Part shown: piece after piece, positions 26,060-38,483 of the stretch
Layout: every line of letters begins with the position of its first letter
Position numbering within the stretch: the first letter of the stretch is position 1
From: Escherichia phage ECp13
Sequence record: PP274704.1
Strand: one strand, 5' to 3'
Length of the DNA: 64,000 bases
The notes under the pieces: model-generated
The model's database searches: none
Told to the model about the DNA's origin: nothing
The model's input: only the letters and a program-made list of their open reading frames with translations
Made by a program: the position numbers and the translations under genes

Positions 26060-26541
26060 TTATAACTATGGTTATTAATGAAAACTCTTGGCACTTTAAA
26101 ATTTACTCGGCATTTAATAGCACATGGAATCGTCCAAAAACGTTATGTGCTTATTTTTGGAAAACGTTTCTCCCGGTATTAGCGGTTTCAATTGTTGGAT
26201 TTGCAACTTTAACAGGTGCTGCAATCATTGGCCAAGAAATTTTAATTAAATTCTTTGTCTTTAGTAGTCTATGGACATTAGTTCCGGCTTCAATTGGTAT
26301 AGGTATTTTAGCATTATCGGTCATGGTTCTTATTGCTGTCGGGGCGGTAATTGGTCCTTCTTGGTTGTTAGACAAATATAACGACCGAAAGCTCAATAAA
26401 GAAATTGAGCTCATTGTACAAAACGAAGAACGAATCAAAAATGGACTTGAGCCTATTCAACCCAAGAAATCTATTATCGTCGAATTTTTAAAAGCGCGTA
26501 AAGCTAAAGTATGTCCTGTTATTGAATATAAGGCTGAATGA
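26056..26541 (+). CDS. multi-pass membrane protein
   Basis: 161 aa with about four hydrophobic helices. Confidence 0.55.
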   Translation: MIITMVINENSWHFKIYSAFNSTWNRPKTLCAYFWKTFLPVLAVSIVGFATLTGAAIIGQEILIKFFVFSSLWTLVPASIGIGILALSVMVLIAVGAVIGPSWLLDKYNDRKLNKEIELIVQNEERIKNGLEPIQPKKSIIVEFLKARKAKVCPVIEYKAE

Positions 26542-27551
26542 TGAAAACAGTAATGAAAAGCTATTTTGGTAGTCATCTTTATGGAACTTCTACTCCAGAA
26601 TCTGATGTAGATTTTAAAGAAATCTTTGTTCCTCCTGCTCGCGATATTCTTATCGGAAATGTTAAAGAGCATATGAGTAAAAACACTAACAACACATCAT
26701 CTAAAAACACTAAAGATGATATTGACCATGAACTATACAGTCTTAAATATTTCTTTAAATTAGCTGCAGATGGTGAAACTGTAGCATTGGATATGCTCCA
26801 TACTCCACCTGAACTAGTGGTTAAATCAGATTTGCCTGATGTATGGAAGTTTATTCAAGACAATCGTTCTCGTTTTTATACGACTAACATGAAATCCTAT
26901 TTAGGATATGTCCGCAAGCAAGCTTCTAAATACGGTGTTAAGGGTTCTCGTTTGGCCGCATTGCGTGATGTATTGAAAGTAGTTAATCAAATCCCCGATC
27001 AGTGGGTTGATTATCAAGAAGGAATCCCTGATAGACTTCGTCGTACTAAGGTAGAAGATATCAAACACAGACTCCCTGAAAATGAGTTCTGTGAATGGGT
27101 ATTCCATAATCATGAGAAAACAGGCCCACAAACGTTCTACACTGTGTTGGGTCGTAAATATCAGACAACACTTTCTCTTATTGAACTTAAGCAGTCACTG
27201 AACAAATTAGATGCTGAATACGGCGAACGCGCTCGTAAGGCTGAAGCGAATGAGGGCATTGACTGGAAAGCTCTGAGTCATGCTTGTCGTGGTGGACTCC
27301 AACTATTGGAAATTTACAAAACAGGTGACTTAGTTTATCCACTTCAAGACGCTCCATTTATTCTCGACGTGAAGCTGGGTAAACACCCATTTAAAACTGT
27401 TCAAGAGTTTTTGGAAGATGTGGTCGATCAAGTAGAAGCAGCATCCATTGAAGCTTCTAAGAACGGTATGCAGCAAAAAGTAGACATGGGTTTCTGGGAT
27501 GACTTCCTTGAGAGGGTTTATCTTGAAAACCATCGAAGTTATTATAAATGA
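26538..27551 (+). CDS. nucleotidyltransferase-fold protein (Pol-beta superfamily-like)
   Basis: 337 aa; N-terminal G-S-x9-D-x-D signature FGSHLYGTSTPESDVDF. Confidence 0.6.
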   Translation: MMKTVMKSYFGSHLYGTSTPESDVDFKEIFVPPARDILIGNVKEHMSKNTNNTSSKNTKDDIDHELYSLKYFFKLAADGETVALDMLHTPPELVVKSDLPDVWKFIQDNRSRFYTTNMKSYLGYVRKQASKYGVKGSRLAALRDVLKVVNQIPDQWVDYQEGIPDRLRRTKVEDIKHRLPENEFCEWVFHNHEKTGPQTFYTVLGRKYQTTLSLIELKQSLNKLDAEYGERARKAEANEGIDWKALSHACRGGLQLLEIYKTGDLVYPLQDAPFILDVKLGKHPFKTVQEFLEDVVDQVEAASIEASKNGMQQKVDMGFWDDFLERVYLENHRSYYK

Positions 27552-27553
27552 TA

Positions 27554-27580
27554 GGGAGCCTTCGGGCTCCCTTTTTATTT
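27554..27580 (+). terminator. intrinsic terminator
   Basis: GGGAGCC-TTCG-GGCTCCC followed by TTTTTATTT. Confidence 0.7.
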
Positions 27581-27600
27581 CAAAATTTTTTCACAAAACG

Positions 27601-27630
27601 GTTTACAAGCATAAAGCTTTATGGTACTAT
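27601..27630 (+). promoter_or_regulatory. early promoter
   Basis: -35 GTTTACA, 17 bp, -10 TACTAT; shares leader with the 11.9k, 29.0k and 53.7k promoters. Confidence 0.6.
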
Positions 27631-27664
27631 ACAACTATCAACTGATACGGATTTGGAGAATAAA

Positions 27665-28633
27665 ATGAAAACTGTAACTATCAATAAGGGTATCTACTTC
27701 GGTAAAGAAATCTCTGGAACTTTTGAGCTCTTAGGCGAATGGTTCCCAGATAATGCTCCGGTAGATGCACAAGGAGATGGTAAAGTTTTTGTTGAAATTG
27801 ACGGTAAACGTCGCGGTGTTTGGGTTTACAAATCAGATATTTCATATGATGGTGTAAAGGTTGAAGAAGTTAAAGAATCGTATGAAGATATGAAAACCCG
27901 CATTAATAAAAGATTTAATGTTATGGGAATGATGACGAATGGTATTATTAATGGAAATATTCGTTCATTGATTATCTCTGGTGCAGCAGGTATTGGTAAA
28001 ACGTATTCTTTAGATAAAGCTTTAAATAAAGCAAATGATATTGGATACATTGAATATAAAAGTATTAATGGTAAAATCTCTGGTATTGGTCTTTATGAGC
28101 AGCTTTGGAATAATCGTGAAGAGAATTCTGTCCTTTTGATTGATGATGTGGATGTTTTCTCTGATATGGACATTCTTAATCTTCTAAAAGCCGCTCTGGA
28201 CACCGGAGAGACCCGTAAAGTCTGCTGGAGCACTGCGTCTTCTTACTTAGAAGAAAAAGGCATTGAGCGTGAGTTTGAATTTAAAGGAACGATTGTTTTT
28301 ATCACAAACGTTGACATTGACCGCGAATTAGACCGTGGTACTAAACTTGCTCCACATTTACAAGCATTAGTGTCCCGCTCGGTTTATTTGGATTTGGGTG
28401 TTCACACTAATGAAGAAATTATGGTCAGGGTTGAAGATGTTATTCTTTCAACTGACATGATGCAAAAGCGCGGTCTTTCTGATGAAGAAACTTATAAAGC
28501 ATTATCATGGATGAAAGTTAATGTTAATCGTTTACGCAATGTTTCACTGCGTACTGCTCTTTATCTTGCTGACTTTATTATGACCGACAAAAACGGTTGG
28601 GAAGAAATCGCTGAGGTTACTCTTCTGAAATAA
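27665..28633 (+). CDS. P-loop ATPase (AAA-like)
   Basis: 322 aa from ATG at 27665; Walker A GAAGIGKTYS, Walker B VLLIDDVD. Confidence 0.65.
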   Translation: MKTVTINKGIYFGKEISGTFELLGEWFPDNAPVDAQGDGKVFVEIDGKRRGVWVYKSDISYDGVKVEEVKESYEDMKTRINKRFNVMGMMTNGIINGNIRSLIISGAAGIGKTYSLDKALNKANDIGYIEYKSINGKISGIGLYEQLWNNREENSVLLIDDVDVFSDMDILNLLKAALDTGETRKVCWSTASSYLEEKGIEREFEFKGTIVFITNVDIDRELDRGTKLAPHLQALVSRSVYLDLGVHTNEEIMVRVEDVILSTDMMQKRGLSDEETYKALSWMKVNVNRLRNVSLRTALYLADFIMTDKNGWEEIAEVTLLK

Positions 28634-28734
28634 TTCATAAGAGGACTTCTATGACAAAAAGGCAGTTCAGAAATAGATTATATGGACTGCCATTAAAAAG
28701 ATGACTAGAATTAAACTGGTGAATGGAGGTAGTG

Positions 28735-29037
28735 ATGTTATACTCAAAGGCTCGTGAAATTTACGAAACTAAAATTAAAGAAGCAGTATTTCAGTTCGCA
28801 ACAACGATGCGATGGACAAATGATTGGGAGTATTCAAAAAATCATAAGAAGCCCATGGTGGCAAGAAAGGCTCATATGTTAGTGTTAATAGACCGTGAGC
28901 AGATTAAAGCCCGAGAAGCCCTCCAGAATCACAAAAAGGCTGCCTTTGAATGGTTTATGGATAACACTGCTCCTGAGACCAAGAAAGCAGTGAGCGCCTG
29001 GTTCAGTGGAAAAAATTGTGAAAGAAGTTTCTTTTAG
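28735..29037 (+). CDS. hypothetical protein
   Basis: ATG at 28735 after RBS GGAGGT; 100 aa. Confidence 0.5.
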   Translation: MLYSKAREIYETKIKEAVFQFATTMRWTNDWEYSKNHKKPMVARKAHMLVLIDREQIKAREALQNHKKAAFEWFMDNTAPETKKAVSAWFSGKNCERSFF

Positions 29038-29039
29038 TG

Positions 29040-29069
29040 GTTTACAAGACTATTCCTCTGTGGTACTAT
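29040..29069 (+). promoter_or_regulatory. early promoter
   Basis: -35 GTTTACA, 17 bp, -10 TACTAT. Confidence 0.6.
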
Positions 29070-29097
29070 ACAACTATCAACTACGGAGGAACAGAAA

Positions 29098-29625
29098 ATG
29101 AACGCTAAAGATATTTTCAACTTGGTAAATTATAACGATGGTAAATTTAAATCTGAAGCACAAAGCAAGTTCTTTAATGACATCTCAATCGGAGGTGAAA
29201 TCACTGTTGATGGAGGACAAATTTACAAATCCCGTTGGAATTGGATCGTTATTATCGATGAGATCGGTATTGTAGAAATTTACAAGAATACGAATAAAAA
29301 TCGTACATTACACTGGTCTCGTGATACTAACGAACAGCACAAAAAGGATAAAGCATCTAAATTATCTCGTGTAACTCAAGAAGATATTGAGTTCATCAAG
29401 AAAGATATTTTAATGTATGATAACTTAATTGCTGAAGAGCAAGCTGTTATTGATAAATTTGACGAGATTAAAGCTTCTCGTGAAATTCCTGATTTTATGA
29501 AAGAATCAGTAAATGAACGATACTCTCTCATTTCAGAGCGTATTGAAACTTACAAAAAGCAAAGAGCTGAACGCCAAAATACTCTTCGGAAGTTTGAAGA
29601 ACGGTTAAAGACGGTACTCGCATAA
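29098..29625 (+). CDS. protein with C-terminal coiled coil
   Basis: 175 aa; RBS GGAGGA; C-terminal heptad-rich segment. Confidence 0.55.
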   Translation: MNAKDIFNLVNYNDGKFKSEAQSKFFNDISIGGEITVDGGQIYKSRWNWIVIIDEIGIVEIYKNTNKNRTLHWSRDTNEQHKKDKASKLSRVTQEDIEFIKKDILMYDNLIAEEQAVIDKFDEIKASREIPDFMKESVNERYSLISERIETYKKQRAERQNTLRKFEERLKTVLA

Positions 29626-29680
29626 CCGCTTTATACCAAGGATGGTATAATGGTTCTAAGCCCTTATAATTGAGATTATT

Positions 29681-30082
29681 ATGAAACAGTTGATAATTAA
29701 AAGATTGAATTTATTGATATGTTGTTTATGTGTAGTAGTTGCATATGGTTATTACGCAATTAATGATTATATGCACTATAAAGATTATGATGTTACTGTA
29801 GTTAATACCATTACAGGAATACAAGGAAAAGGGTCTAGTTTATCGTTTATTGCCGTATATGAACTTAAAGACGGCTATAGATTTAGTGAATATATTTCCC
29901 CAGAGATGTATTCTTCAATAGAAAAAGGTGATAATATTACTGTAAGTTTACGTCCTTTCGACGTAAAACAGACGTGGTTTGATAATATTGTTTGGTTCTT
30001 TGGAATGGCATTAGTTCAGTCTATATGCGGTACTTATATAGTCTGTTCAATCTTATTTAGTGTAATTAGTAAAATTGAGTGA
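29681..30082 (+). CDS. membrane protein
   Basis: 133 aa with N- and C-terminal hydrophobic helices. Confidence 0.5.
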   Translation: MKQLIIKRLNLLICCLCVVVAYGYYAINDYMHYKDYDVTVVNTITGIQGKGSSLSFIAVYELKDGYRFSEYISPEMYSSIEKGDNITVSLRPFDVKQTWFDNIVWFFGMALVQSICGTYIVCSILFSVISKIE

Positions 30083-30089
30083 GGAAAAT

Positions 30090-30980
30090 ATGTCAGTAGT
30101 AATTAATAATGTCAATGCAGTAATTAAATCTTTAGTTAATAAAAAAATGATGAATGAATGGACTGTATTTCGCAGTGCAGAGCCAGATAAATTTTTTCAT
30201 AGATTTAACCCAACTTTGGATTTGAATGTTATCGACAGAGATGTTCATGCTGAAATTTTAGATAAGTTTAAAGTTGATATTGGATTTGGATTAGAAAAAC
30301 ATTTACAGCGAACAAATGGATCTGGAATGAGTTTATCTAATCGCATTATGAAAGCCCTTAATAAAATTGGAGCATTGTCTCGTATTAATGCAAGTGAAAT
30401 CCTTCGTAATTATAATAAAGGATATGACCTTTATGGTCGACTGATGCCAAAATTATCATTCGATCAAATGATTACGGATTTGTGGGAAAATCAAAGACGA
30501 TTATTAGCATTAGGCGCTCGATTAGCTAAAGGTCTAGATAAACAAATGATTTTTAAGACCAATAATACAGAAGACCTTAAATGCTTTAAATTTAGTACTC
30601 GTGGCATTGATTATTATATCAGAGCTCACTCTACAGATTATGTCAATATGGGGCATCATCTCTGTTTAGCTTTTGAAGTTTTAAAAGAAGCTGGAACATT
30701 AGAATATTCATCTGGGGCAAAATGTCCTATTGGTTCAAGTTGTATTTTAATTTATCGCCCGGATGAATCCAGTTCAACTACATTGCCTACGAAACCTGTA
30801 CCAGTTCGTAGTAACGAAAAACATTCTGAACAAATTGATTATTTTAATAAACAGATTGAAGAGCTGAATATTTCTATTCAACAATATGATGATGAAATTT
30901 TCAGACTATCTGGACTGAGTAGTAAAGCTAAATCTGAGCGTGAAAAGTTAATTAAAATTGTCGATTTACTTAAATCTTAA
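30090..30980 (+). CDS. hypothetical protein, member of C-terminal coiled-coil paralog family
   Basis: 296 aa from ATG at 30090 after RBS GAGG; coiled-coil C-terminus. Confidence 0.55.
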   Translation: MSVVINNVNAVIKSLVNKKMMNEWTVFRSAEPDKFFHRFNPTLDLNVIDRDVHAEILDKFKVDIGFGLEKHLQRTNGSGMSLSNRIMKALNKIGALSRINASEILRNYNKGYDLYGRLMPKLSFDQMITDLWENQRRLLALGARLAKGLDKQMIFKTNNTEDLKCFKFSTRGIDYYIRAHSTDYVNMGHHLCLAFEVLKEAGTLEYSSGAKCPIGSSCILIYRPDESSSTTLPTKPVPVRSNEKHSEQIDYFNKQIEELNISIQQYDDEIFRLSGLSSKAKSEREKLIKIVDLLKS

Positions 30981-30988
30981 GGAATACC

Positions 30989-32011
30989 ATGAAAACTCGT
31001 TCTCAAATTGAAGATATGGTTCGTACTGCCAGCGATACTCGTAATGTTATGACATTTTTGTGCGAAAATAATTTAGACCCTGATAAAGTTAATCGTGCTA
31101 TTCATCACTTTAAATATCTAAATAGCAGTGAATGGGTGAGTAATTTTAGTAAAGCGGGGTATATTACACAAATGACGGCTCGTGAGCAGCTCACAGATTT
31201 TTGTAAAACTATTGATTATAAAAATCCTCTATTTGTTCAAGGCGTTGGTCAAAGTAAGGTCGATTTATCGTCTGGATTTTTTAATCCAAATCATTATCGT
31301 ATTGAATGGAGATTTATTGCTCTATTCCGTAAACAATTAAAGCAAATTTTATCAACTGCGAGTCGATTAAAAGGTTCTGATATTAACTTAAAGAACCTGA
31401 AATTTGATGGTTATACTCTTCAGATGGAAGTAAGACCATTAAAAGAAAATAACAGAACTGCGCGAATTAGCTTTAAACCTAATACAAAAAATTCTCTTTC
31501 AATTTGCGAATGCCTTAAATCACAGTTGACAGAAGCATTTAAGTATATGGATGTTGTTGCCGCTGTTCAGTCTAAGATTTTACCTCGTTTTGAGCGATTT
31601 AAATTAGACACAACAACGTATGAACTTGATATGTTCGTTTCATTTAAATACGATTTTTTGAGAAAGGACGAAATCCCGCAAGAGAAAAAGCAGGAAGTGC
31701 AAGATATCTTAAATTTATCCAATTACTCATCAAACGATCCTAAATTTTGGATGTATAGCTCAGGTAATAAGGATGCATGGAAATTCAATAAAGCGAATTT
31801 TCTTCCTATTGAAAATCCGAGTCTTAAACCTGTTGAAAAATGGCACGCCGATGCGATTGAGAATTCTCTTAAAGCAGTAGATGATGAACTCGTTAAAGCA
31901 ACTAATGAAGTGTTAGAAGCTGAAAAGATGCTAGAACAAGCTCAGTCAAGGGTTCAAAATCTGACAAAGCAACGTTCTAAACTGAACAATGCACTAAATG
32001 CACTGAACTAG
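30989..32011 (+). CDS. hypothetical protein, member of C-terminal coiled-coil paralog family
   Basis: 340 aa; N-terminus MKTRSQIEDM; coiled-coil C-terminus. Confidence 0.55.
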   Translation: MKTRSQIEDMVRTASDTRNVMTFLCENNLDPDKVNRAIHHFKYLNSSEWVSNFSKAGYITQMTAREQLTDFCKTIDYKNPLFVQGVGQSKVDLSSGFFNPNHYRIEWRFIALFRKQLKQILSTASRLKGSDINLKNLKFDGYTLQMEVRPLKENNRTARISFKPNTKNSLSICECLKSQLTEAFKYMDVVAAVQSKILPRFERFKLDTTTYELDMFVSFKYDFLRKDEIPQEKKQEVQDILNLSNYSSNDPKFWMYSSGNKDAWKFNKANFLPIENPSLKPVEKWHADAIENSLKAVDDELVKATNEVLEAEKMLEQAQSRVQNLTKQRSKLNNALNALN

Positions 32012-32040
32012 TTTACTTTGCCACAAGGATGTGGTATAAT
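32011..32040 (+). promoter_or_regulatory. early promoter
   Basis: -35 GTTTACT, 17 bp, -10 TATAAT. Confidence 0.6.
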
Positions 32041-32068
32041 GTTCTTACTTTCTACTGAGGAGATTAAT

Positions 32069-33070
32069 ATGACTCGTAACGAATATATCAAATCGTTCAA
32101 TAGCGTTATTGATGATAAAGTTAAACCTATGTCTAGTCAGAATAGTGTGATTTCTATTATCAATCAATGGATCAATAATACTAGTGCAAGTATTGTTTCT
32201 TCCGACAAATTTATTTATGAAGTTTGTGAAATTTCTAGTCGTACATATAAAGATGACATTAAGGAAACCTTTAAAGGTTCTCGTCTTCTTTCATACTTAG
32301 TCAACAGAGATATTCTTAGTAAATTTGGGAAAGAAATTAAACGAACTAAAGATGTAGTAGGATATAATTGGTTCGGTGATGTTAATTCTTATCATCTTAA
32401 TAATAAAGAAGACCCTGAGAATATTTTTACTCGTCGTTGGATTAGTAATTTCAGACTTTTCAAAGGACAAATTCTAAAATCAGCTTCTAAATTATGTTAT
32501 GGCGATTATCGTCAAATTCATCCTTTGGCTTCTGATATGATTATCGTAAAAGAAAATGAGCTTGATAAAAATAAAGTAGCTATTTTTGTGAATTATGGAT
32601 TTTTTACACCAAACGCTAACCAAAAGAATATTAATAAATTTTTCTCAATTGCTAGCACTATAACTTATCAATTAGAGGCGGCTTTGGGCTGTATGGAAAC
32701 TGTAAAAAGTATTCATACATATCCTTTCAAAAATATGTGTGGTTGGGAAGGATATAAAATTATAATTAGCCTTCGTGAAGTGAAATGTGCGTACTCACCG
32801 ACTGATAAAGAAATTTACCAACAAAAATGTGAAGAAATTGTGAATACTCCTAAAGAAGAAACTACCCTTGAGGAACTAATGGATAATCTTGATGATTCAC
32901 CTGAACCGGTAGAAATTCGTCCAGAAGTTATTGCATTAGAAAAAGCTTATAAGGAAGTTCTAGAAATTTCTAATAAAGCGCAGAAAGAATATGAGCAGGC
33001 TAAAAGGATTTGGGAAGAATCTGTTAATCGCCTGGATCGTCTTGAACAAGCTTTACAATTAATTAAGTAA
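32069..33070 (+). CDS. hypothetical protein, member of C-terminal coiled-coil paralog family
   Basis: 333 aa from ATG at 32069 after RBS GAGGAG; coiled-coil C-terminus. Confidence 0.55.
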   Translation: MTRNEYIKSFNSVIDDKVKPMSSQNSVISIINQWINNTSASIVSSDKFIYEVCEISSRTYKDDIKETFKGSRLLSYLVNRDILSKFGKEIKRTKDVVGYNWFGDVNSYHLNNKEDPENIFTRRWISNFRLFKGQILKSASKLCYGDYRQIHPLASDMIIVKENELDKNKVAIFVNYGFFTPNANQKNINKFFSIASTITYQLEAALGCMETVKSIHTYPFKNMCGWEGYKIIISLREVKCAYSPTDKEIYQQKCEEIVNTPKEETTLEELMDNLDDSPEPVEIRPEVIALEKAYKEVLEISNKAQKEYEQAKRIWEESVNRLDRLEQALQLIK

Positions 33071-33122
33071 TTTAAAGCCAAGGATGGCTCGGAGTATAAA
33101 TCATTAACCAAGTGAGAAGAAC

Positions 33123-34052
33123 ATGAAAACTCGTAAACATTATATTGATTATTTTGACAGTCTTATTACTAAACACCGTAATTATCAGATCGGACACAGA
33201 GCAGTAATCAATAATATTCTTCGTGATTTCCTTCAATATGTTGGCCAGGAAAATCATATCTGTAAAGATACTCAAAACGCTTATTCTCATTCGTTAGGCA
33301 ATTTGCTTGAATGGTTTAAACGTTCTCGTATGTTATCTTCTACTGTAGCTCGCGATAACATTAAAAACTTTATGAAGCCGAGCTTCATTAAATCTGCAAC
33401 ATCTATAACCGATTTGGTTGAATTTACTATTGTTAACGATGTTAAAAAGACCCACTTGGCTGATTGGTTATCTACCATTCCTGAAACTAAATTTGCTGAT
33501 AAATTTGCTTGTCAATTCAATGACCAAGTGAATATGCTTTTTAAGCATGCTCGCAAACTATTTACCGCTGGTGATGACCGTACAAATACAGTTCATGTTA
33601 AGGACTGGGTTATTGCTGATGAAGTAACACATAAGCCAGGTGGTTCATCAGTGTTAATTAATATCCAGGTTCCTTATTATTACTCACGTAATCTCGGCAC
33701 CATGAACTCTAGAGAAATTAATAAGCACAACAAAACTATTCGTTCGTTGTCTTATAAACTCCGCATGATGTTAAAAATCATGGACGTAGTAGAAATGTAT
33801 GACGAAACCGAAGATAATGGTTCAATGTTATACAGTTCACGCATTCTAATTAAACTGAAGAACCCTAATACATATAAGACAGTTTTAAAAGAGCCTAAAG
33901 TAGAAAAGGTTGATAACCTGAGCGAAGAACGTGAATATCTCAATGCTCGTTTAATTGAAGTTGAAGCTCAGATTGCCGAACACACCAAATCGTTAAAAGT
34001 TCTTAATGCAAAAGCAAATGGTTTACGTAATGCTATTGAGGTGCTGAAATGA
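33123..34052 (+). CDS. hypothetical protein, member of C-terminal coiled-coil paralog family
   Basis: 309 aa; N-terminus MKTRKHYIDY; coiled-coil C-terminus. Confidence 0.55.
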   Translation: MKTRKHYIDYFDSLITKHRNYQIGHRAVINNILRDFLQYVGQENHICKDTQNAYSHSLGNLLEWFKRSRMLSSTVARDNIKNFMKPSFIKSATSITDLVEFTIVNDVKKTHLADWLSTIPETKFADKFACQFNDQVNMLFKHARKLFTAGDDRTNTVHVKDWVIADEVTHKPGGSSVLINIQVPYYYSRNLGTMNSREINKHNKTIRSLSYKLRMMLKIMDVVEMYDETEDNGSMLYSSRILIKLKNPNTYKTVLKEPKVEKVDNLSEEREYLNARLIEVEAQIAEHTKSLKVLNAKANGLRNAIEVLK

Positions 34053-34366
34053 AAAAGCGTCTATTAGAAGATATTGCGGCTTCAAGTAATTCCAGTCTAA
34101 TTAAAATTATTATGGATGGTGAAGAAGACGATCTGGAAATGCGTGGAAAGATTCATGGTTGTGACGATTTAGATTTTAAACCTCCAGCCTGGGATGCTAT
34201 TATGGCTATGGTTGAACGTCGCGAAAGGGCTTCTAAAAACGTTCCTAATTGTCCTGAATGTGGTACTGAACAGGTTCAATTAATTCATTGGCAGACTAGT
34301 ATTCTTCGTTATAAATGCCGTCATTGCAAACACCGATTTAACCGAGAAGAAAATGACAAAGCGTAA
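34049..34366 (+). CDS. zinc-ribbon protein
   Basis: 105 aa; CPECGTEQ...CRHCKHRF two CxxC pairs. Confidence 0.5.
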
Positions 34367-34595
34367 AGAATATATGGAGACTGCTGAAAAGGCAGTCCGT
34401 GAATTAGCAATAGCGTATTATAATGAACATGGTAAATTTCCTGATAGATACAGCGTGCTTAAATCTGCTTTAACTCGTTCATATAAAAATATGCTATCAG
34501 AAGTAAGTGATATTATATACAAACATAAAGAACAAACGGGCCAAAGTCTTGATTACGACGAGACTTTTAAACAAGTACTAGGAATTAAGGAATAA
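34353..34595 (+). CDS. hypothetical protein
   Basis: 80 aa; translationally coupled upstream of nrdC. Confidence 0.5.
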
Positions 34596-34596
34596 T

Positions 34597-34860
34597 ATGT
34601 TTAAAGTATATGGTTATGATAGCAACATCCATAAATGCGTGTATTGCGATAATGCAAAACGTCTTTTGACTGTAAAGAAACAGCCATTTGAATTTATCAA
34701 CATTATGCCGGAAAAAGGTGTTTTTGATGATGAGAAAATCGCTGAGCTTCTGACGAAACTAGGTCGTGATACTCAAATTGGTTTGACGATGCCACAAGTA
34801 TTTGCTCCTGATGGAAGTCATATTGGCGGATTTGACCAATTGCGGGAATACTTTAAATGA
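34597..34860 (+). CDS. nrdC: thioredoxin/glutaredoxin NrdC
   Basis: 87 aa; MFKVYGYDSNIHKCVYCDNAKRLL... matches recalled T4 thioredoxin. Confidence 0.92.
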   Translation: MFKVYGYDSNIHKCVYCDNAKRLLTVKKQPFEFINIMPEKGVFDDEKIAELLTKLGRDTQIGLTMPQVFAPDGSHIGGFDQLREYFK

Positions 34861-35072
34861 TGCTCGAAGGAACTGATTATATCCATGACTACCGCGGAAG
34901 CGCGGTATATGTAGGTGATGAAGTTGCAGTTTACTATGGGTATGGAACTTTGATGACAGCCAAGGTTATTCAAATTAAAAATAACCGTGCTAAACTTGAA
35001 GTTTATTATTCTAATGGTGAAAAGTCTATTTCTAAATGGAAATATGGCGATTGTATGGTCAAATTGGGGTAA
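34857..35072 (+). CDS. hypothetical small protein
   Basis: 71 aa; ATGA overlap with nrdC. Confidence 0.5.
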   Translation: MMLEGTDYIHDYRGSAVYVGDEVAVYYGYGTLMTAKVIQIKNNRAKLEVYYSNGEKSISKWKYGDCMVKLG

Positions 35073-35074
35073 AT

Positions 35075-35245
35075 ATGATTTACGATATTAGTGCATCAAG
35101 AACTCCGTCAATGGTTACTATTCCTGCTGAAGAATTAGATCGTCTTCAGAAAATTGAAGAACTTCTTTGGGAAATTGAATCTGATTTGCCATCAGGACTA
35201 GAATCCTGGATTGATTATGAAGAACTTAATAAATTGCGAAATTAA
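35075..35245 (+). CDS. hypothetical small acidic protein
   Basis: 56 aa from ATG at 35075. Confidence 0.4.
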   Translation: MIYDISASRTPSMVTIPAEELDRLQKIEELLWEIESDLPSGLESWIDYEELNKLRN

Positions 35246-35255
35246 TTGGTGAAAA

Positions 35256-35576
35256 ATGACTATTGAAAATAAATTAGATGTTGATGCAGTTCTGAGTGAA
35301 ATCATCGAAGACCATGATGCATTTTCAGAAAATTATGATTTCGATTTTTCGGATTATCTTAAACCTATCGAAATAGAAGACTGGGTGCAAGATGGTAAAT
35401 GCCAATATCGTCAGTGCATTTATTTTAGTCCAAAACATAACGTTCATGTGTCTGTAAATGAAACTCGCTCAGGTTCTTACCATTCTGACTGGTATTATGC
35501 AGTTCCGACTGTTGAACTAGTCGAGCCCCGTGAACGTGTAGTAACTCAGACAGTACGAGAATGGATTACGCTATAA
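35256..35576 (+). CDS. hypothetical protein
   Basis: 106 aa. Confidence 0.5.
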   Translation: MTIENKLDVDAVLSEIIEDHDAFSENYDFDFSDYLKPIEIEDWVQDGKCQYRQCIYFSPKHNVHVSVNETRSGSYHSDWYYAVPTVELVEPRERVVTQTVREWITL

Positions 35577-35716
35577 AACCTTGGTGGGCGGCTAGATGGG
35601 AAACAGTAGAGCCAGAGCCGGAAGAACCGGTTTACACTGATGAAGAAACAGTATATAATGAACCAACGATAAATGACTTAATTGATATGGAGATGGGACA
35701 TGATTACAGTAGATAA
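35561..35716 (+). CDS. possible small overlapping ORF
   Basis: 51-aa acidic ORF in alternate frame bridging two genes (hand-translated). Confidence 0.25.
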   Translation: MDYAIKPWWAARWETVEPEPEEPVYTDEETVYNEPTINDLIDMEMGHDYSR

Positions 35717-36146
35717 GTGGTTTAGAATTAATCGTGCTGATAAAGGGCTGTGTAATTATTGGCCGGAACTTAGTGCAGGTACTGTCTTTAAAGTTCGTGA
35801 ACTTGCAAAAGAATGCGAAGATGATATAGAACCTGATACTGGAATTATTGAAATTGAACTTTCTGATGGAAAGATTATTAACATCTATGATAAGCCAATT
35901 ACGTATTGGTGCTTGTGGAATACTGAATCAGTAGAAAATGGCGAAATTGAAGAGGTCGTAGAACGAGTTGATCAAGTTATTCATAAACCTGAAGCCGCTT
36001 TTCAAGGTGAACGCATTTCATATGCATTAGCTAAATTAGCTGCACAAGAAAATAACGATGGTTATGAAGGAAATTTAATGCAAGCTGCGGCAGAATATAT
36101 TGAATGGCTTGAAACTCAAAATTCTTTTTCTGACCGAGCGTTTTAA
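35700..36146 (+). CDS. hypothetical protein
   Basis: 148 aa from ATG at 35700; ORF-track start at 35682 is TTG. Confidence 0.5.
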   Translation: MITVDKWFRINRADKGLCNYWPELSAGTVFKVRELAKECEDDIEPDTGIIEIELSDGKIINIYDKPITYWCLWNTESVENGEIEEVVERVDQVIHKPEAAFQGERISYALAKLAAQENNDGYEGNLMQAAAEYIEWLETQNSFSDRAF

Positions 36147-36166
36147 TACTTGAAAATAATAAATAC

Positions 36167-36196
36167 CCTTATCTATTCAAGGTAAGGGTTTTATTA
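36167..36196 (+). promoter_or_regulatory. hairpin over the gene 49 translation initiation region
   Basis: CCCTTA / TAAGGG 6-bp stem overlapping the RBS just before the ATG at 36196. Confidence 0.4.
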
Positions 36197-36669
36197 TGTT
36201 ATTGACTGGCAAATTATACAAAGAAGAAAAACAAAAATTTTATAATGCACAAAATGGTAAATGCTTAATTTGCCAACGAGAACTAAATCCTGATGTTCAA
36301 GCTAATCACCTTGACCATGACCATGAATTAAATGGACCAAAAGCAGGAAAGGTACGTGGATTGCTCTGTAATCTTTGCAATGCAGCGGAAGGTCAAATGA
36401 AGCATAAATTTAATCGTTCTGGCTTAAAGGGACAAGGTGTTGATTATCTTGAATGGTTAGAAAATTTACTTACTTATTTAAAATCCGATTACACCCAAAA
36501 TAATATTCACCCTAACTTCGTTGGAGATAAATCAAAGGAATTTTCTCGTTTAGGAAAAGAGGAAATGATGGCTGAGATGCTTCAAAGAGGATTTGAATAT
36601 AATGAATCTGACACCAAAACACAATTAATAGCTTCATTTAAGAAGCAGCTTAGAAAGAGTTTAAAATGA
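36196..36669 (+). CDS. 49: endonuclease VII (Holliday junction resolvase)
   Basis: 157 aa; MLLTGKLYKEEKQKFYNAQNGKCLICQREL... matches recalled T4 gp49. Confidence 0.92.
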   Translation: MLLTGKLYKEEKQKFYNAQNGKCLICQRELNPDVQANHLDHDHELNGPKAGKVRGLLCNLCNAAEGQMKHKFNRSGLKGQGVDYLEWLENLLTYLKSDYTQNNIHPNFVGDKSKEFSRLGKEEMMAEMLQRGFEYNESDTKTQLIASFKKQLRKSLK

Positions 36670-38483
36670 CAATTGAAAAAGAAATTGAAGGATTGATTCA
36701 TAAAACTAATAAAGACCTTTTAAACGAGAATGCTAATAAAGATTCTCGTGTTTTTCCAACTCAACGGGACCTTATGGCTGGTATTGTGTCTAAACACATT
36801 GCCAAAAATATGGTCCCGTCTTTTATTATGAAAGCGCATGAAAGCGGAATTATTCATTTCCATGATATTGATTATTCCCCTGCTCTTCCATTTACTAATT
36901 GCTGTTTAGTAGATTTAAAAGGAATGCTTGAGAACGGATTTAAGCTCGGTAATGCGCAGATTGAAACTCCTAAATCAATCGGCGTTGCTACTGCAATTAT
37001 GGCACAAATTACTGCGCAGGTTGCTTCTCATCAATATGGCGGAACGACTTTTGCGAATGTAGATAAAGTACTTTCTCCTTATGTTAAACGCACCTATGCA
37101 AAACATATTGAGGATGCAGAAAAATGGCAAATCGCTGATGCGTTGAATTACGCCCAGTCTAAAACAGAAAAAGACGTATACGATGCATTCCAAGCTTATG
37201 AATATGAAGTAAATACTCTCTTTAGTTCAAACGGACAAACACCTTTTGTAACAATTACGTTTGGTACGGGAACTGACTGGACTGAACGAATGATTCAGAA
37301 AGCAATTCTGAAAAATCGTATTAAAGGCCTTGGTCGCGATGGGATAACTCCTATTTTCCCTAAGCTTGTTATGTTCGTTGAAGAGGGCGTCAATCTTTAT
37401 AAAGATGATCCGAACTATGATATTAAGCAGCTTGCTCTAGAGTGTGCAAGCAAAAGAATGTATCCTGATATTATTTCAGCTAAGAATAATAAAGCTATCA
37501 CCGGTTCATCTGTTCCTGTTTCTCCAATGGGTTGCCGCAGTTTCTTGAGTGTATGGAAAGATTCGACTGGTAATGAAATTCTTGATGGACGTAATAATCT
37601 TGGCGTTGTAACACTGAATCTTCCTCGCATTGCACTAGATTCTTATATTGGAACACAGTTCAATGAACAGAAATTTGCCGAATTGTTCAATGAACGAATG
37701 GATTTGTGTTTTGAAGCTTTGATGTGTAGAATTAGTTCCTTAAAAGGAGTTAAAGCGACTGTTGCTCCTATTCTTTACCAAGAAGGTGCATTCGGGGTTC
37801 GTCTTAAACCTGATGATGACATAATTGAGTTATTTAAAAACGGTAGAAGTTCAGTGTCTTTAGGATACATTGGTATTCACGAATTGAATATTCTTGTCGG
37901 TCGTGATATTGGACAGGAAATTTTAACTAAAATGAATGCTCGTCTTAAGCAGTGGACTGAAAGAACCGGTTTTGCTTTTAGCTTGTATTCTACTCCTGCT
38001 GAAAACCTTTGCTATCGCTTCTGTAAACTTGATACTGAAAAATATGGAAGTGTAAAAGATGTTACTGATAAAGGCTGGTACACTAATAGTTTCCATGTTT
38101 CAGTAGAAGAAAATATTACTCCATTTGAAAAGATTTCCCGCGAAGCTCCATATCATTTCATTGCGACAGGTGGTCACATTTCTTATGTTGAACTTCCTGA
38201 TATGAAAAATAACCTAAAAGGTCTTGAGGCTGTATGGGATTATGCTGCACAGCATTTAGATTATTTTGGCGTTAATATGCCAGTAGATAAGTGTTTTACA
38301 TGCGGAAGTACACATGAAATGACTCCTACTGAAAACGGATTTGTTTGTTCTATTTGTGGAGAAACTGATCCTAAAAAGATGAACACAATAAGAAGAACTT
38401 GTGGTTATTTGGGAAATCCGAATGAACGCGGATTTAATCTCGGCAAAAATAAAGAAATCATGCATAGGGTTAAACACCAATGA
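36666..38483 (+). CDS. nrdD: anaerobic ribonucleotide reductase NrdD (intronless)
   Basis: Continuous 605-aa ORF; length matches spliced T4 NrdD. Confidence 0.92.
   Translation: MTIEKEIEGLIHKTNKDLLNENANKDSRVFPTQRDLMAGIVSKHIAKNMVPSFIMKAHESGIIHFHDIDYSPALPFTNCCLVDLKGMLENGFKLGNAQIETPKSIGVATAIMAQITAQVASHQYGGTTFANVDKVLSPYVKRTYAKHIEDAEKWQIADALNYAQSKTEKDVYDAFQAYEYEVNTLFSSNGQTPFVTITFGTGTDWTERMIQKAILKNRIKGLGRDGITPIFPKLVMFVEEGVNLYKDDPNYDIKQLALECASKRMYPDIISAKNNKAITGSSVPVSPMGCRSFLSVWKDSTGNEILDGRNNLGVVTLNLPRIALDSYIGTQFNEQKFAELFNERMDLCFEALMCRISSLKGVKATVAPILYQEGAFGVRLKPDDDIIELFKNGRSSVSLGYIGIHELNILVGRDIGQEILTKMNARLKQWTERTGFAFSLYSTPAENLCYRFCKLDTEKYGSVKDVTDKGWYTNSFHVSVEENITPFEKISREAPYHFIATGGHISYVELPDMKNNLKGLEAVWDYAAQHLDYFGVNMPVDKCFTCGSTHEMTPTENGFVCSICGETDPKKMNTIRRTCGYLGNPNERGFNLGKNKEIMHRVKHQ

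Follow-up and report, generated by a model that had tools for sequence, protein, structure and literature searches.

Positions 29,098 to 34,052 of the 64,000-nt stretch of Escherichia phage ECp13 DNA analyzed here (PP274704.1; the window) carry five ORFs whose products a first-pass annotation had described as coiled-coil-ended and, in four cases, as apparently paralogous. This raises the question whether these genes are one family expanded by duplication and whether, as proposed there, they serve host interaction or anti-defense. The window, 97.5% identical to Tequatrovirus genomes, is Tequatrovirus DNA in reverse T4 orientation. All five ORFs were found again with lengths of 175, 296, 340, 333, and 309 aa, and we identify them as nrdC.8, nrdC.6, nrdC.5, nrdC.4, and nrdC.3, a block of the hyperplastic region of early genes in a T4-type phage, with 60.6-97.7% identity to T4 NrdC.3-NrdC.8. 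On the + strand, to which all features reported here belong, these are the orthologs of nrdC.8 (29098..29625, 97.7% identity to T4 NrdC.8; phrog_2274), nrdC.6 (30090..30980, 96.5% over residues 1-259), nrdC.5 (30989..32011, between nrdC.6 and nrdC.4 as in T4), nrdC.4 (32069..33070, 87.7%), and nrdC.3 (33123..34052, with 60.6% the lowest). The nrdC.7 ortholog (29681..30082, 133 aa, 94.7%), annotated in T4 as a predicted membrane protein, is interposed among the family genes without being a member itself; a heptad signal was not found in it by a sliding score, and in RB69 it is placed elsewhere, between nrdC.2 and nrdC. NrdC.5 matches Pfam DUF7235 (E 8e-125), nrdC.4 matches phrog_1435 and PF26897, and nrdC.6 homologues carry PF26899. 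Apart from such family matches, the Pfam search gave no catalytic or other domain, in agreement with the failure to recognize a catalytic motif by eye.

The early promoters ascribed to several of these genes were recovered in part. The 52-60 nt gaps upstream of nrdC.8, nrdC.7, nrdC.4, and nrdC.3 contain promoter-like hexamers, whereas nrdC.6, which starts at or overlapping the end of nrdC.7 (listed 30090 versus 30082), and nrdC.5, which begins 8 nt past the nrdC.6 stop, lack such a gap. The clearest pairs precede nrdC.8 (29041..29069, TTTACA-17-TACTAT with TG; a consensus match only, possibly of the T4 early-promoter type) and nrdC.4 (32012..32040, GTTTACT-17-TATAAT with TG; 10 of 12 consensus positions). 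Since consensus matches over the region are at chance level (49 observed, 45 expected), these assignments rest on position and not on statistics. Hairpins lie between nrdC.8 and nrdC.7 (ACCA-AGGA-TGGT, 29635..29651, overlapping TATAAT), between nrdC.5 and nrdC.4 (CCACA-AGGA-TGTGG, 32021..32034, also flagged as terminator-like), and between nrdC.4 and nrdC.3 (GCCA-AGGA-TGGC, then GGAG and TATAAA, 33077..33100); the last element recurs in RB69-, VR7-, and JS10-type loci, and its outer stem pairs covary. In the nrdC.8-nrdC.7 gap, GCTTTA is found 12 bp upstream of TATAAT, which resembles T4 middle-promoter geometry. Furthermore, nrdC.6 starts with an ATG with a GAGG Shine-Dalgarno sequence, and the GGAG Shine-Dalgarno sequence of nrdC.8 is reported to be subject to moderate RegB cleavage in T4 (PMC1702504).

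Comparison with relatives bore out the description of the genes as accessory. Gene content differs between genera: RB69 is devoid of nrdC.4, while VR7 and JS10 lack nrdC.3. The phage collection holds 741 records each for nrdC.8 and nrdC.6, 653 for nrdC.3, 584 for nrdC.5, and 553 for nrdC.4, and the nrdC.4/nrdC.3 family occurs only in T4-like phages, with 9 clusters found in a set of 1.84 billion representatives. Pseudogenes, i.e., split or frameshifted copies, and one natural chimera exist. The nrdC.3 alleles in the collection fall into classes at about 95%, 77%, and 60% identity, and the copy studied here (dS of 1.19 relative to T4) is a divergent allele in a pattern that looks like allele replacement. 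However, the diversification that had also been suggested was not borne out in terms of selection, as gene-wide dN/dS is 0.26-0.27 for nrdC.3 and nrdC.4 and 0.06-0.12 for nrdC.6 and nrdC.8, indicating stronger constraint on the latter; with all of these values below 1, diversifying selection is not demonstrated.

With respect to function, the anti-defense role is supported for nrdC.5. T4 nrdC.5, a nonessential early gene, restores both infection and plating when the cells carry Dsr1 (Srikant et al. 2022, eLife 11:e79549; PMC9391042), a SIR2 NADase by which the major capsid protein is sensed (PMC13581612), and ORF 30989-32011 is the ortholog of this published anti-Dsr1 gene (94.4% identity over the full length of 340 aa). 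For nrdC.3, nrdC.4, nrdC.6, and nrdC.8, we infer such a role. Alternatively, the family could be real but have a general job in host takeover or phage physiology, e.g., binding housekeeping complexes or organizing early replication or transcription, with the effect of nrdC.5 on Dsr1 being specialized or indirect. This would be in line with an anti-defense phenotype that concerns only one member and was obtained by complementation rather than binding, as well as with nrdC.6 and nrdC.8, whose presence in all 741 matching records and low dN/dS are more suggestive of conserved physiology than of an arms race. Nevertheless, we regard it as unlikely, considering that the genes can be dispensed with on laboratory hosts, where deletions including nrdC.5 are viable (PMC9391042), that they show genus-level presence/absence, allele swaps, and pseudogenes, and that validated anti-defense genes are immediately adjacent, the neighbors nrdC.1 and gp49.2 being inhibitors of Septu and OLD, respectively.

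Whether the genes form a family at all was approached through their architecture and through all-against-all comparisons. All five proteins indeed end in heptad-rich segments: when heptad contrast was scored over the last 42 residues of every coding-strand (+) ORF of the window that encodes 100 aa or more (68 in all), the five occupied ranks 1-5 (nrdC.5 1st, nrdC.3 2nd, nrdC.8 4th), and a sliding 28-residue score peaked at the extreme C-terminus in 5/5 of them and in 0/6 neighboring proteins. Over the last 49 residues of nrdC.3, nrdC.4, nrdC.5, and nrdC.6, the a/d positions of one unbroken register are 86-93% hydrophobic, and over the last 35 residues of nrdC.8 they are 80% hydrophobic, compared to a whole-protein hydrophobic content of 37-40%. 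The segment of nrdC.8, identified by sliding score and a/d hydrophobicity, is located at 29503..29622 (about residues 136-175, over which the sliding score is at least 2 sd above the shuffle mean). That of nrdC.5 spans 31838..32008 (residues 284-340; a/d 93-94% hydrophobic over 49-56 residues), is free of Pro and Gly, and gives weak Pfam matches to coiled-coil families at residues 288-339, while that of nrdC.3 lies at 33903..34049 (residues 261-309; a/d 86-90%).

AF2 models were used for nrdC.4 and nrdC.6. The nrdC.4 model (pLDDT 83, pTM 0.68) is predicted to be globular over residues 1-258 and disordered over 263-286, followed by a single long C-terminal helix (32921..33064, residues 285-332; a/d 86% hydrophobic over 49 residues). 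Similarly, nrdC.6 (pLDDT 77, pTM 0.64) is predicted to be globular over about 1-222, disordered over 228-243, and to end in C-terminal helices (30810..30977, residues 241-295; helices 241-272 and 278-295; a/d 86% over 49 residues). In both models, the segment ahead of these helices has a pLDDT below 50. In every family, conservation is higher over the last 45 residues than in the N-domain; for nrdC.3, identity to the T4 allele is 76-80% in this stretch and 60% in the N-domain. It should be noted that the T4 reference nrdC.6 has lost its C-terminal helix through a 1-nt deletion, and the helix thus appears dispensable, at least for laboratory growth.

Within the globular part, two motifs are in register and collinear in nrdC.3, nrdC.4, nrdC.5, and nrdC.6. 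The likeness noticed by eye between ALGARLAKG and STASRLKGS is real: it falls inside a motif placed in register by hhalign, and this motif sits on the corresponding helix pair in the nrdC.6 and nrdC.4 models. In nrdC.6, motif 2 is LWENQRRLLALGARLAKGLD (30480..30539, residues 131-150; AF2 helices H124-133/H135-145), the majority of its residues being invariant in the family alignment, and hhalign places it in register with the motifs of nrdC.5 and nrdC.4. The nrdC.4 counterpart, NFRLFKGQILKSASKLCYGD (32447..32506, residues 127-146; AF2 helices H119-130/H132-142), contains F128, K137, K141, and G145, which are invariant in the nrdC.4/nrdC.3 alignment, and is aligned with QVNMLFKHARKLFTAGDD of nrdC.3 (33525..33578, residues 135-152; third hhalign block) and with FRKQLKQILSTASRLKGSD of nrdC.5 (31325..31381, residues 113-131), of which R114 and R126 are invariant across homologues at just 22-31% identity. 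As previously seen, two proteins, nrdC.5 and nrdC.3, begin with MKTR; nrdC.4 begins with MTRNEYI, and T2, R3, Y6, I7, and F10 are invariant in its alignment with nrdC.3.

The proposed four-member paralogy stood at different strengths for different genes. Judged from their sequences, nrdC.4 and nrdC.3 are certainly paralogous (blastp E 3e-8; hhalign 98%; end-to-end matches to phrog_1435 with E 4e-163 and 4e-115, respectively). Profile-profile comparison also links nrdC.5 to this pair, making it a probable paralog: hhalign gave 92.7% (E 4.4e-7) over 233 collinear columns extending to the C-terminus, and 85% (E 6e-6) with the N-domains only, from shallow alignments (Neff 2.3-2.8), while hmmsearch against a 551-ORF database did not recover the nrdC.5-nrdC.4 link (E 0.28). 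For nrdC.6, no significant sequence link to the other members was found (hhalign 0.2-5%; hmmsearch E > 1), and its membership is suggested instead by Foldseek between predicted models (TM 0.38-0.48) together with the two in-register motifs. The nrdC.4 model retrieved JS10 NrdC.6 (E 2.8e-5, probability 1.0), the secondary-structure elements follow one another in the same order in both models, and both match the same Straboviridae proteins, from Acj61, Acj9, fHyAci03, PM2, IME523, Mineola, fHe-Yen9-01, and CBH8 (TM up to 0.48). One of these, as judged by length and organism, is Mineola_080, which also matches the nrdC.5 profile (73%, E 3e-5, 237 columns). In contrast, nrdC.8 gave hhalign values of at most 1.5% against all four families and was a paralog by no test run; by these comparisons it is an unrelated small protein that likewise ends in a coiled coil. 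The links of nrdC.5 and nrdC.6 to nrdC.3/.4 are absent from the family databases consulted, whereas the nrdC.3-nrdC.4 grouping is already implicit in PHROGs.

These gradations leave room for a reading in which the proteins are unrelated or partly related early proteins with independently acquired coiled-coil tails, nrdC.3 and nrdC.4 being the only true paralogs and the fold likeness of nrdC.6 (and nrdC.5) an artifact of mid-confidence models and shallow profiles. The missing sequence link of nrdC.6 would fit, as would the three separate Pfam families (PF23882, PF26897, and PF26899), TM scores below 0.5, an earlier hhalign match of 99.3% that was an artifact caused by a chimeric sequence, and the tail of nrdC.8, which occurs at this locus without homology. 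Yet the TM scores are low because the C-terminal helix is freely oriented, many reciprocal Foldseek matches have a probability of 1.00, and the two models agree in element order and in the positions of the motif helices. The collinear motifs, the shared architecture and size of products of adjacent genes, and the bridge from nrdC.5 to the fold through Mineola_080 argue in the same direction. Furthermore, distant phages carry fold relatives at the same locus, Acj61p120 and p121 of Acinetobacter phage Acj61 lying between nrdC and nrdC.10 and Mineola_080 of Klebsiella phage Mineola adjoining the nrdC.2-like gene, so that the array is old. Independent origins of the tails therefore seem quite improbable to us.

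Taken as a whole, and with the strength graded by gene as above, nrdC.3, nrdC.4, nrdC.5, and nrdC.6 emerge as tandem copies of a single modular protein that duplicated long ago and diverged strongly, and we consider it reasonably probable that their coiled coils oligomerize and their globular domains neutralize host immune proteins. The N-terminal part of the module is a globular domain, helical plus alpha/beta and about 220-270 residues long, with two conserved helix motifs; a short disordered linker containing proline comes next, and a coiled-coil helix of 45-55 residues forms the C-terminus. The proteins would be produced early in infection and oligomerize via the conserved coiled coil, leaving the fast-evolving globular domains to bind specific host immune proteins and neutralize them stoichiometrically. 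NrdC.5, for which overcoming of Dsr1 is published, may bind it directly, at the sensor or the SIR2 domain. As nrdC.5 disarms Dsr1, nrdC.3, nrdC.4, and nrdC.6 are good candidates for further anti-immunity genes, each possibly directed against a different defense system.

That the globular domain instead mimics a virion protein, so that the early paralogs would act as decoys occupying the sensor domains of structural-protein-recognizing immune receptors without activating them, is very unlikely, even though the predicted alpha/beta core is reminiscent of tail-terminator and tail-completion proteins. The scores of this resemblance to the lambda gpU-like fold are weak, and gpU-like proteins, which are late structural proteins with lengths of 120-280 aa, have neither a helical N-domain nor a coiled-coil tail, whereas the nrdC genes are early and not known to encode virion components.

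Among known systems, the published work on T4 NrdC.5 describes the phenotype and not structure, mechanism, or family relationships; neither its relationship to nrdC.3/.4/.6 nor the head-linker-coiled-coil architecture was found in the searchable literature. ORFs 32069 and 33123 belong to the T4 NrdC.4/NrdC.3 family (PHROG 1435, PF26897), which has no assigned function. A mechanism of the kind proposed for nrdC.5 is exemplified by DSAD1 (PMC10973363), a small protein of phage origin that lacks enzymatic domains and binds and inhibits the defense-associated sirtuin DSR2. DSAD1 differs in that its target is DSR2 and not Dsr1 and in not being known from a tandem paralog array; the two are likened by mechanism and not by sequence or fold. 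Closer to the locus, nrdC.1 (anti-Septu), gp49.2 (anti-OLD), and pin (a Lon inhibitor) are unrelated to nrdC.3-.6 in sequence, with single-copy genes and products of 80-161 aa without a coiled-coil tail, but like nrdC.3-.6 they are accessory, have no known domains, and (at 34353-36179 of the window) belong to this early-transcribed hyperplastic region.

The island belongs to a Tequatrovirus genome segment that runs in the reverse orientation of the T4 reference. Positions 26500-36700 are 97.5% identical to Shigella phages KNP5 and Sfk20, and the stretch 29098-34052 is matched by 740 phage records, nearly all of them T4-like and originating from Escherichia, Shigella, Yersinia or Salmonella. 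By blastp, the genes correspond to T4 nrdC.8 (29098-29625, 97.7% identity), nrdC.7, encoding a predicted membrane protein (29681-30082, 94.7%), nrdC.6 (30090-30980, 96.5% over residues 1-259), nrdC.5 (30989-32011, 94.4%), nrdC.4 (32069-33070, 87.7%), and nrdC.3 (33123-34052, 60.6%). They are flanked upstream by nrdC.11, nrdC.10, and nrdC.9 and downstream by nrdC.2, nrdC.1, nrdC, gp49.2, pin, and gp49. The coordinates and lengths of the ORFs in the first-pass annotation were found to be correct by ORF calling, and the ATG starts at 30090 and 32069, both with a good Shine-Dalgarno sequence, are the same as in the T4 annotation. In the flanks, a counterpart of T4 gp49.3 is absent from the window, and two small ORFs (34857-35072, 71 aa; 35036-35245, 69 aa) lie between nrdC and gp49.2. 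Within 26538-28633, nrdC.11 matches the RlaP nucleotidyltransferase family (RNA-repair pathway; E 3e-11), while nrdC.10 has weak matches to AAA/STAND-type NTPases; a GC-rich terminator hairpin whose loop is UUCG (27553-27572) follows the end of nrdC.11 and precedes the T4-equivalent nrdC.10 start (~27665).

All 5 island proteins had been described as ending in heptad-rich segments, and this observation was confirmed far beyond chance. Using simple scoring schemes of our own, made for this analysis, we found hydrophobic residues at 86-93% of the a/d positions in the last 49 residues of nrdC.3, nrdC.4, nrdC.5, and nrdC.6, in a single unbroken register, and at 80% in the last 35 residues of nrdC.8, compared to a whole-protein hydrophobic content of 37-40% and 8-20% bulky hydrophobics at the other heptad positions. 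When the window's 68 coding-strand ORFs with a length of 100 aa or more were ranked by heptad contrast over their last 42 residues, the island proteins took places 1-5, and a sliding 28-residue score peaked at the extreme C-terminus in all 5 of them and in none of 6 neighboring proteins. Independent support came from AlphaFold2 (AF2) monomer predictions. The nrdC.4 model (pLDDT 83, pTM 0.68) consists of a confident globular part (residues 1-258), a segment with pLDDT <50 (263-286), and one helix (285-332), and the nrdC.6 model (pLDDT 77, pTM 0.64) is globular to approximately residue 222, disordered at 228-243, and ends in helices 241-272 and 278-295; the pLDDT of the C-terminal helices is 62-70 in nrdC.4 and 79-88 in nrdC.6. 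Judged by heptad scores and AF2 helices together, the segments comprise 4-5 or more consecutive heptads whose a/d positions are hydrophobic, in a helix that contains neither Pro nor Gly. Furthermore, in every family conservation is higher over the final 45 residues than over the globular domain (76-80% vs 60% in nrdC.3, 60-64% vs 40-50% in nrdC.4, and 58-69% vs 42-46% in nrdC.6), and in the homolog P0226 the C-terminal helix of nrdC.4 is near-identical, while the head is only 29% identical.

The 4 larger proteins had also been proposed to be paralogous, which held to different degrees for the individual members. Clearly homologous by sequence comparison are nrdC.4 and nrdC.3, which align by blastp at 24.6% identity (228 residues, E 3e-8), are each matched by phrog_1435 from end to end (4e-163 for ORF 32069 and 4e-115 for ORF 33123), and are linked by hhalign of the 2 families at 98% (E ~1e-13). 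Membership in phrog_1435 was not found for nrdC.5, nrdC.6, or nrdC.8. ORF 30989 matches PF23882 (DUF7235 / NrdC.5; E 8e-125, profile positions 1-307), as do the nrdC.5 genes of VR7, JS10, and RB69, and no match to this Pfam family at E <=0.1 was obtained for ORFs 29098, 30090, 32069, and 33123. With the nrdC.5 alignment enriched in diverse homologs from VR7, DK-13, JS10, and the RB69/phiE142 type, hhalign aligned nrdC.5 to nrdC.4/nrdC.3 at 92.7% (E 4.4e-7) over 233 collinear columns reaching the C-terminus, and the profile-profile match persisted after removal of the coiled coil (85%, E 6e-6). Thus, nrdC.5 is probably homologous to nrdC.4 and nrdC.3.

A chimeric homolog, P0056, was excluded from the alignments before these results (98%, 92.7%, and 85%) were obtained. 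It had entered both alignments and thereby produced a spurious first hhalign value of 99.3% for nrdC.5 against nrdC.3; without P0056, the direct comparison of the two gives 6-14%. P0056 itself is a natural in-frame fusion of nrdC.5(146-272) to nrdC.3(129-309) with deletion of nrdC.4, its junction lying approximately at window positions 31804 / 33507, with a short FN..VN microhomology at non-equivalent positions of the two proteins. With each family profile, hmmsearch over the 551 coding-strand ORFs that the window and the comparison loci contain revealed a single link, that between nrdC.3 and nrdC.4. An exhaustive search of 1.84 billion representatives with the nrdC.4/nrdC.3 profile returned 9 proteins, all of nrdC.4 or nrdC.3 type, a result that neither ties nrdC.5 and nrdC.6 to this pair nor excludes them; at the sequence level, the nrdC.4/nrdC.3 family is confined to T4-like phages. 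Two other likenesses were set aside: matches between C-terminal segments alone (hhalign E 0.005-0.01) were judged to reflect coiled-coil composition and not homology. T4 internal proteins bear a capsid-targeting signal, which prompted the idea that the MKTR start could be such a signal; homologous N-termini, with T2, R3, Y6, I7, and F10 invariant, are the simpler explanation.

For nrdC.6, sequence and structure point in different directions. No significant sequence link to the other families was detected (hhalign 0.2-5%, hmmsearch E >1). However, the AF2 cores of nrdC.6 and nrdC.4 have a common order of elements: helix, helix, short helix, two strands, long helix, two strands. The nrdC.4 model matches the JS10 NrdC.6 entry in BFVD (Foldseek E 2.8e-5, probability 1.00), and both models retrieve common uncharacterized proteins of 300-370 aa (Foldseek probability 1.00, TM up to 0.48), namely from Acinetobacter phages Acj61 (two proteins), Acj9, and fHyAci03, Pectobacterium phage PM2, Enterobacter phage IME523, Klebsiella phage Mineola, Yersinia phage fHe-Yen9-01, and Serratia phage CBH8. 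The shared Foldseek matches speak for the shared fold that had been anticipated, while the TM values of 0.48 at most speak against it; these are low because the freely placed C-terminal helix depresses them. The fold comparison is based on the AF2 models of nrdC.4 and nrdC.6, with nrdC.3 joined via sequence and nrdC.5 via hhalign and Mineola_080 (Klebsiella phage Mineola gene 080, 326 aa). The latter aligns to the nrdC.5 profile (73%, E 3e-5, 237 collinear columns) and, being equated by length and organism with the BFVD entry matched by both models, would serve as a bridge from nrdC.5 to the nrdC.4/nrdC.6 fold.

Moreover, 2 helix motifs of the globular domain, G-x-L-S-x-x-x-A-x-[DE]-x-L-x-x-[FY] (motif 1) and [IL]-L-x-x-[AG]-x-[RK]-L-x(1,3)-G-x(0,1)-D (motif 2), which were defined post hoc, occur in the same order in all 4 proteins and are in register by hhalign, even in low-probability alignments. 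They read GYITQMTAREQLTDF and FRKQLKQILSTASRLKGSD in nrdC.5, GALSRINASEILRNY and LWENQRRLLALGARLAKGLD in nrdC.6, SRLLSYLVNRDILSKF and NFRLFKGQILKSASKLCYGD in nrdC.4, and SRMLSSTVARDNIKNF and QVNMLFKHARKLFTAGDD in nrdC.3. The previously noticed likeness of ALGARLAKG and STASRLKGS falls within motif 2, on the corresponding helix pair of the nrdC.6 and nrdC.4 models. While the all-against-all profile comparison of the 5 families linked nrdC.3, nrdC.4, and nrdC.5 but neither nrdC.6 nor nrdC.8, predicted structure and genomic position favor the membership of nrdC.6, against the sequence result. Within the NrdC.6 family, P0120 (Shigella phage Sf25, 378 aa) is a variant with 95% identity to 88% of the query, which leaves it with approximately 80 extra residues; it may have arisen by fusion to the reading frame of nrdC.7, which lies upstream.

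The relationship of nrdC.8 to the 4 larger proteins, in contrast, did not hold up, since only the coiled-coil tail is common to them. Neither the full-length protein nor its N-domain exceeded 1.5% by hhalign with any family, the highest value in any comparison being 4.2% with nrdC.6 for C-terminal segments alone, and hmmsearch against the families gave E >0.7. Accordingly, the idea that this protein of 175 aa is a truncated family member is unsupported, and nrdC.8 is not part of the superfamily that we propose for nrdC.3-6, characterized by a globular head, a linker, and a C-terminal coiled coil.

Fold relatives at this locus in T4-like phages that infect other genera of bacteria bear on the age of the array. 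In Acinetobacter phage Acj61, which belongs to a different subfamily, Acj61p120 (330 aa) and Acj61p121 (304 aa) are adjacent to each other between nrdC and nrdC.10, and Mineola_080 adjoins an nrdC.2-like gene, which is the exact position of nrdC.3; all 3 proteins have heptad C-termini and motif-2-like strings. The location of these relatives at the same locus indicates that the tandem array is older than the diversification of the Straboviridae. Among coliphages, its members vary by genus (nrdC.3/.4/.5/.6 in the T4 type, nrdC.3/.5/.6 in RB69, and nrdC.4/.5/.6 in VR7, JS10, and DK-13). In a phage collection, tblastn matched 741 records each for nrdC.8 and nrdC.6, 653 for nrdC.3, 584 for nrdC.5, and 553 for nrdC.4. 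Relative to the window copy, nrdC.3 falls into three allele classes of ~95%, 77%, and 60% identity, and its dS to T4 of 1.19, compared to 0.07-0.32 for its neighbors, indicates allele replacement by recombination. Gene-wide dN/dS is highest in nrdC.3 and nrdC.4 (0.26-0.27 vs <=0.17 elsewhere); all values are below 1, with no sign of positive selection at this gene-wide level.

Several disrupted copies were observed as well. The nrdC.4 gene is split into two pieces in T2 and in an IMG/VR Tequatrovirus contig (L003, 8916-9950; ORFs of 193 and 158 aa), and the nrdC.4 model has such fragments (155-158 aa) as its best two BFVD matches. In the T4 reference (NC_000866), a 1-nt deletion in nrdC.6 (GCTGAAT to GCTG-AT, window 30866-30870) causes a frameshift by which the C-terminal coiled coil is lost (275 aa vs 296 aa); it is due either to mutation of the laboratory strain or to an error in the old sequencing. 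The RB69 nrdC.5 (L010, 5973-6875) matches DUF7235 over profile positions 1-232 only and has a non-helical tail, probably caused by a frameshift; the closely related phiE142-type copy (L005, 8976-9935) retains the coiled coil.

Regarding expression, early promoters of their own had been attributed to several island genes. Promoter-like hexamers do occur in the 52-60-nt gaps before nrdC.8, nrdC.7, nrdC.4, and nrdC.3, the clearest being GTTTAC-17-TATAAT before nrdC.4 and TTTACA-17-TACTAT before nrdC.8, but the region as a whole has about as many consensus matches as chance would give (49 vs 45 expected), so that the promoter calls rest on position. Before nrdC.7 (29627-29651), GCTTTA lies 12 bp upstream of TATAAT, a spacing that we take to resemble the MotA-box geometry of T4 middle promoters. 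Three gaps contain a hairpin of the form NCCA-AGGA-TGGN with a constant AGGA loop (29635-29646, 32021-32034, and 33077-33088), located 8-12 nt past the stop codons of nrdC.8, nrdC.5, and nrdC.4 and immediately 5' of a TATAAT/TATAAA -10 element, often with GGAG next to it. Three of the 4 occurrences of CAAGGATG in the 64-kb window are hairpin sites. The hairpin recurs in other comparison loci (L005 and L010 at ~5921 and 6944, L009 at 6870, L011 at 6708, and L012 at 6852), with covariation of the outer stem pairs from one phage genus to another (GCCA/TGGC, ACCA/TGGT, CCACA/TGTGG, AACCA/TGGTT, TCCA/TGGA, and ATCCA/TGGAT). Possible roles of the hairpin are those of a promoter-spacer element, of a weak terminator or stabilizer, or of a processing signal. 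The GGAG Shine-Dalgarno sequence of nrdC.8 is a moderate RegB site (PMC1702504), which is consistent with early expression.

As in the inspection by eye, which had recognized no catalytic motif, searches of Pfam and PHROGs revealed no catalytic or other known domain, and no related solved structure was found by sequence in the PDB; matches to designed helical repeats in the PDB and to Cas6b_C, PHL, integrase SAM, and DUF3238 in Pfam were all below threshold. Our literature searches on the paralogy or on functions of nrdC.3, nrdC.4, nrdC.6, and nrdC.8 returned only genome notes, the RegB site of nrdC.8, and one transcript-level mention. T4 nrdC.5 is a non-essential early gene that an evolved clone had lost by deletion; when it is expressed, cells with the SIR2 immune protein Dsr1 from ECOR17 can be infected again (PMC9391042). 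By orthology, the window copy, which is 94% identical to that of T4, would be expected to have anti-Dsr1 activity. Dsr1 is described as a SIR2 protein that recognizes the major capsid protein through its Avs7-like sensor (PMC13581612). Among nearby genes, the adjacent nrdC.1 inhibits Septu (bioRxiv 10.1101/2025.11.20.689424) and gp49.2 inhibits OLD (PMC13096335).

We take the orthology to T4, the AF2 architecture of nrdC.4 and nrdC.6, the homology of nrdC.3 and nrdC.4, to which nrdC.5 is probably related, the accessory distribution, and the published nrdC.5 phenotype as established. The first-pass interpretation of a duplicated accessory family with an anti-defense role is supported with caveats: the nrdC.5 phenotype and the variable gene content speak for it, while such a role is only presumptive for nrdC.3, nrdC.4, and nrdC.6, and dN/dS is below 1. 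In the mechanism that we consider most likely, family members would be non-enzymatic inhibitors produced early, the conserved coiled coil would oligomerize them, and the variable head would directly bind one particular host immune protein. We consider it rather unlikely that the nrdC.3-6 array constitutes a Straboviridae-wide modular anti-immunity toolkit, in which a coiled-coil oligomerization handle carries interchangeable, quickly replaced heads, each blocking another Dsr1/Avs-type host pattern-recognition receptor, possibly via virion-fold mimicry. Were this the case, an inhibitor catalog for structural-protein-sensing defenses would already be at hand in the uncharacterized paralogs and in related proteins of Acinetobacter, Klebsiella, Pectobacterium, Erwinia, and Serratia phages.

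T4 is the best-studied lytic phage, and most of its approximately 130 accessory early genes are without known function; to our knowledge, nrdC.5 is among very few counters to sirtuin-type immune proteins. Three adjacent orphan genes, probably diverged nrdC.5 paralogs, now become specific, testable anti-defense candidates, with a domain map of variable head, linker, and conserved coiled coil for mechanistic work, and with the nrdC.3 allele classes, the truncated T4 nrdC.6, and the nrdC.5::nrdC.3 chimera as natural variants usable as probes. The island does not amount to a new kind of biological system: its genes are long-annotated T4 ORFs, one of them with a published anti-defense role, to which this analysis adds the family relationship, the common modular architecture, and the conservation of the locus across the Straboviridae.
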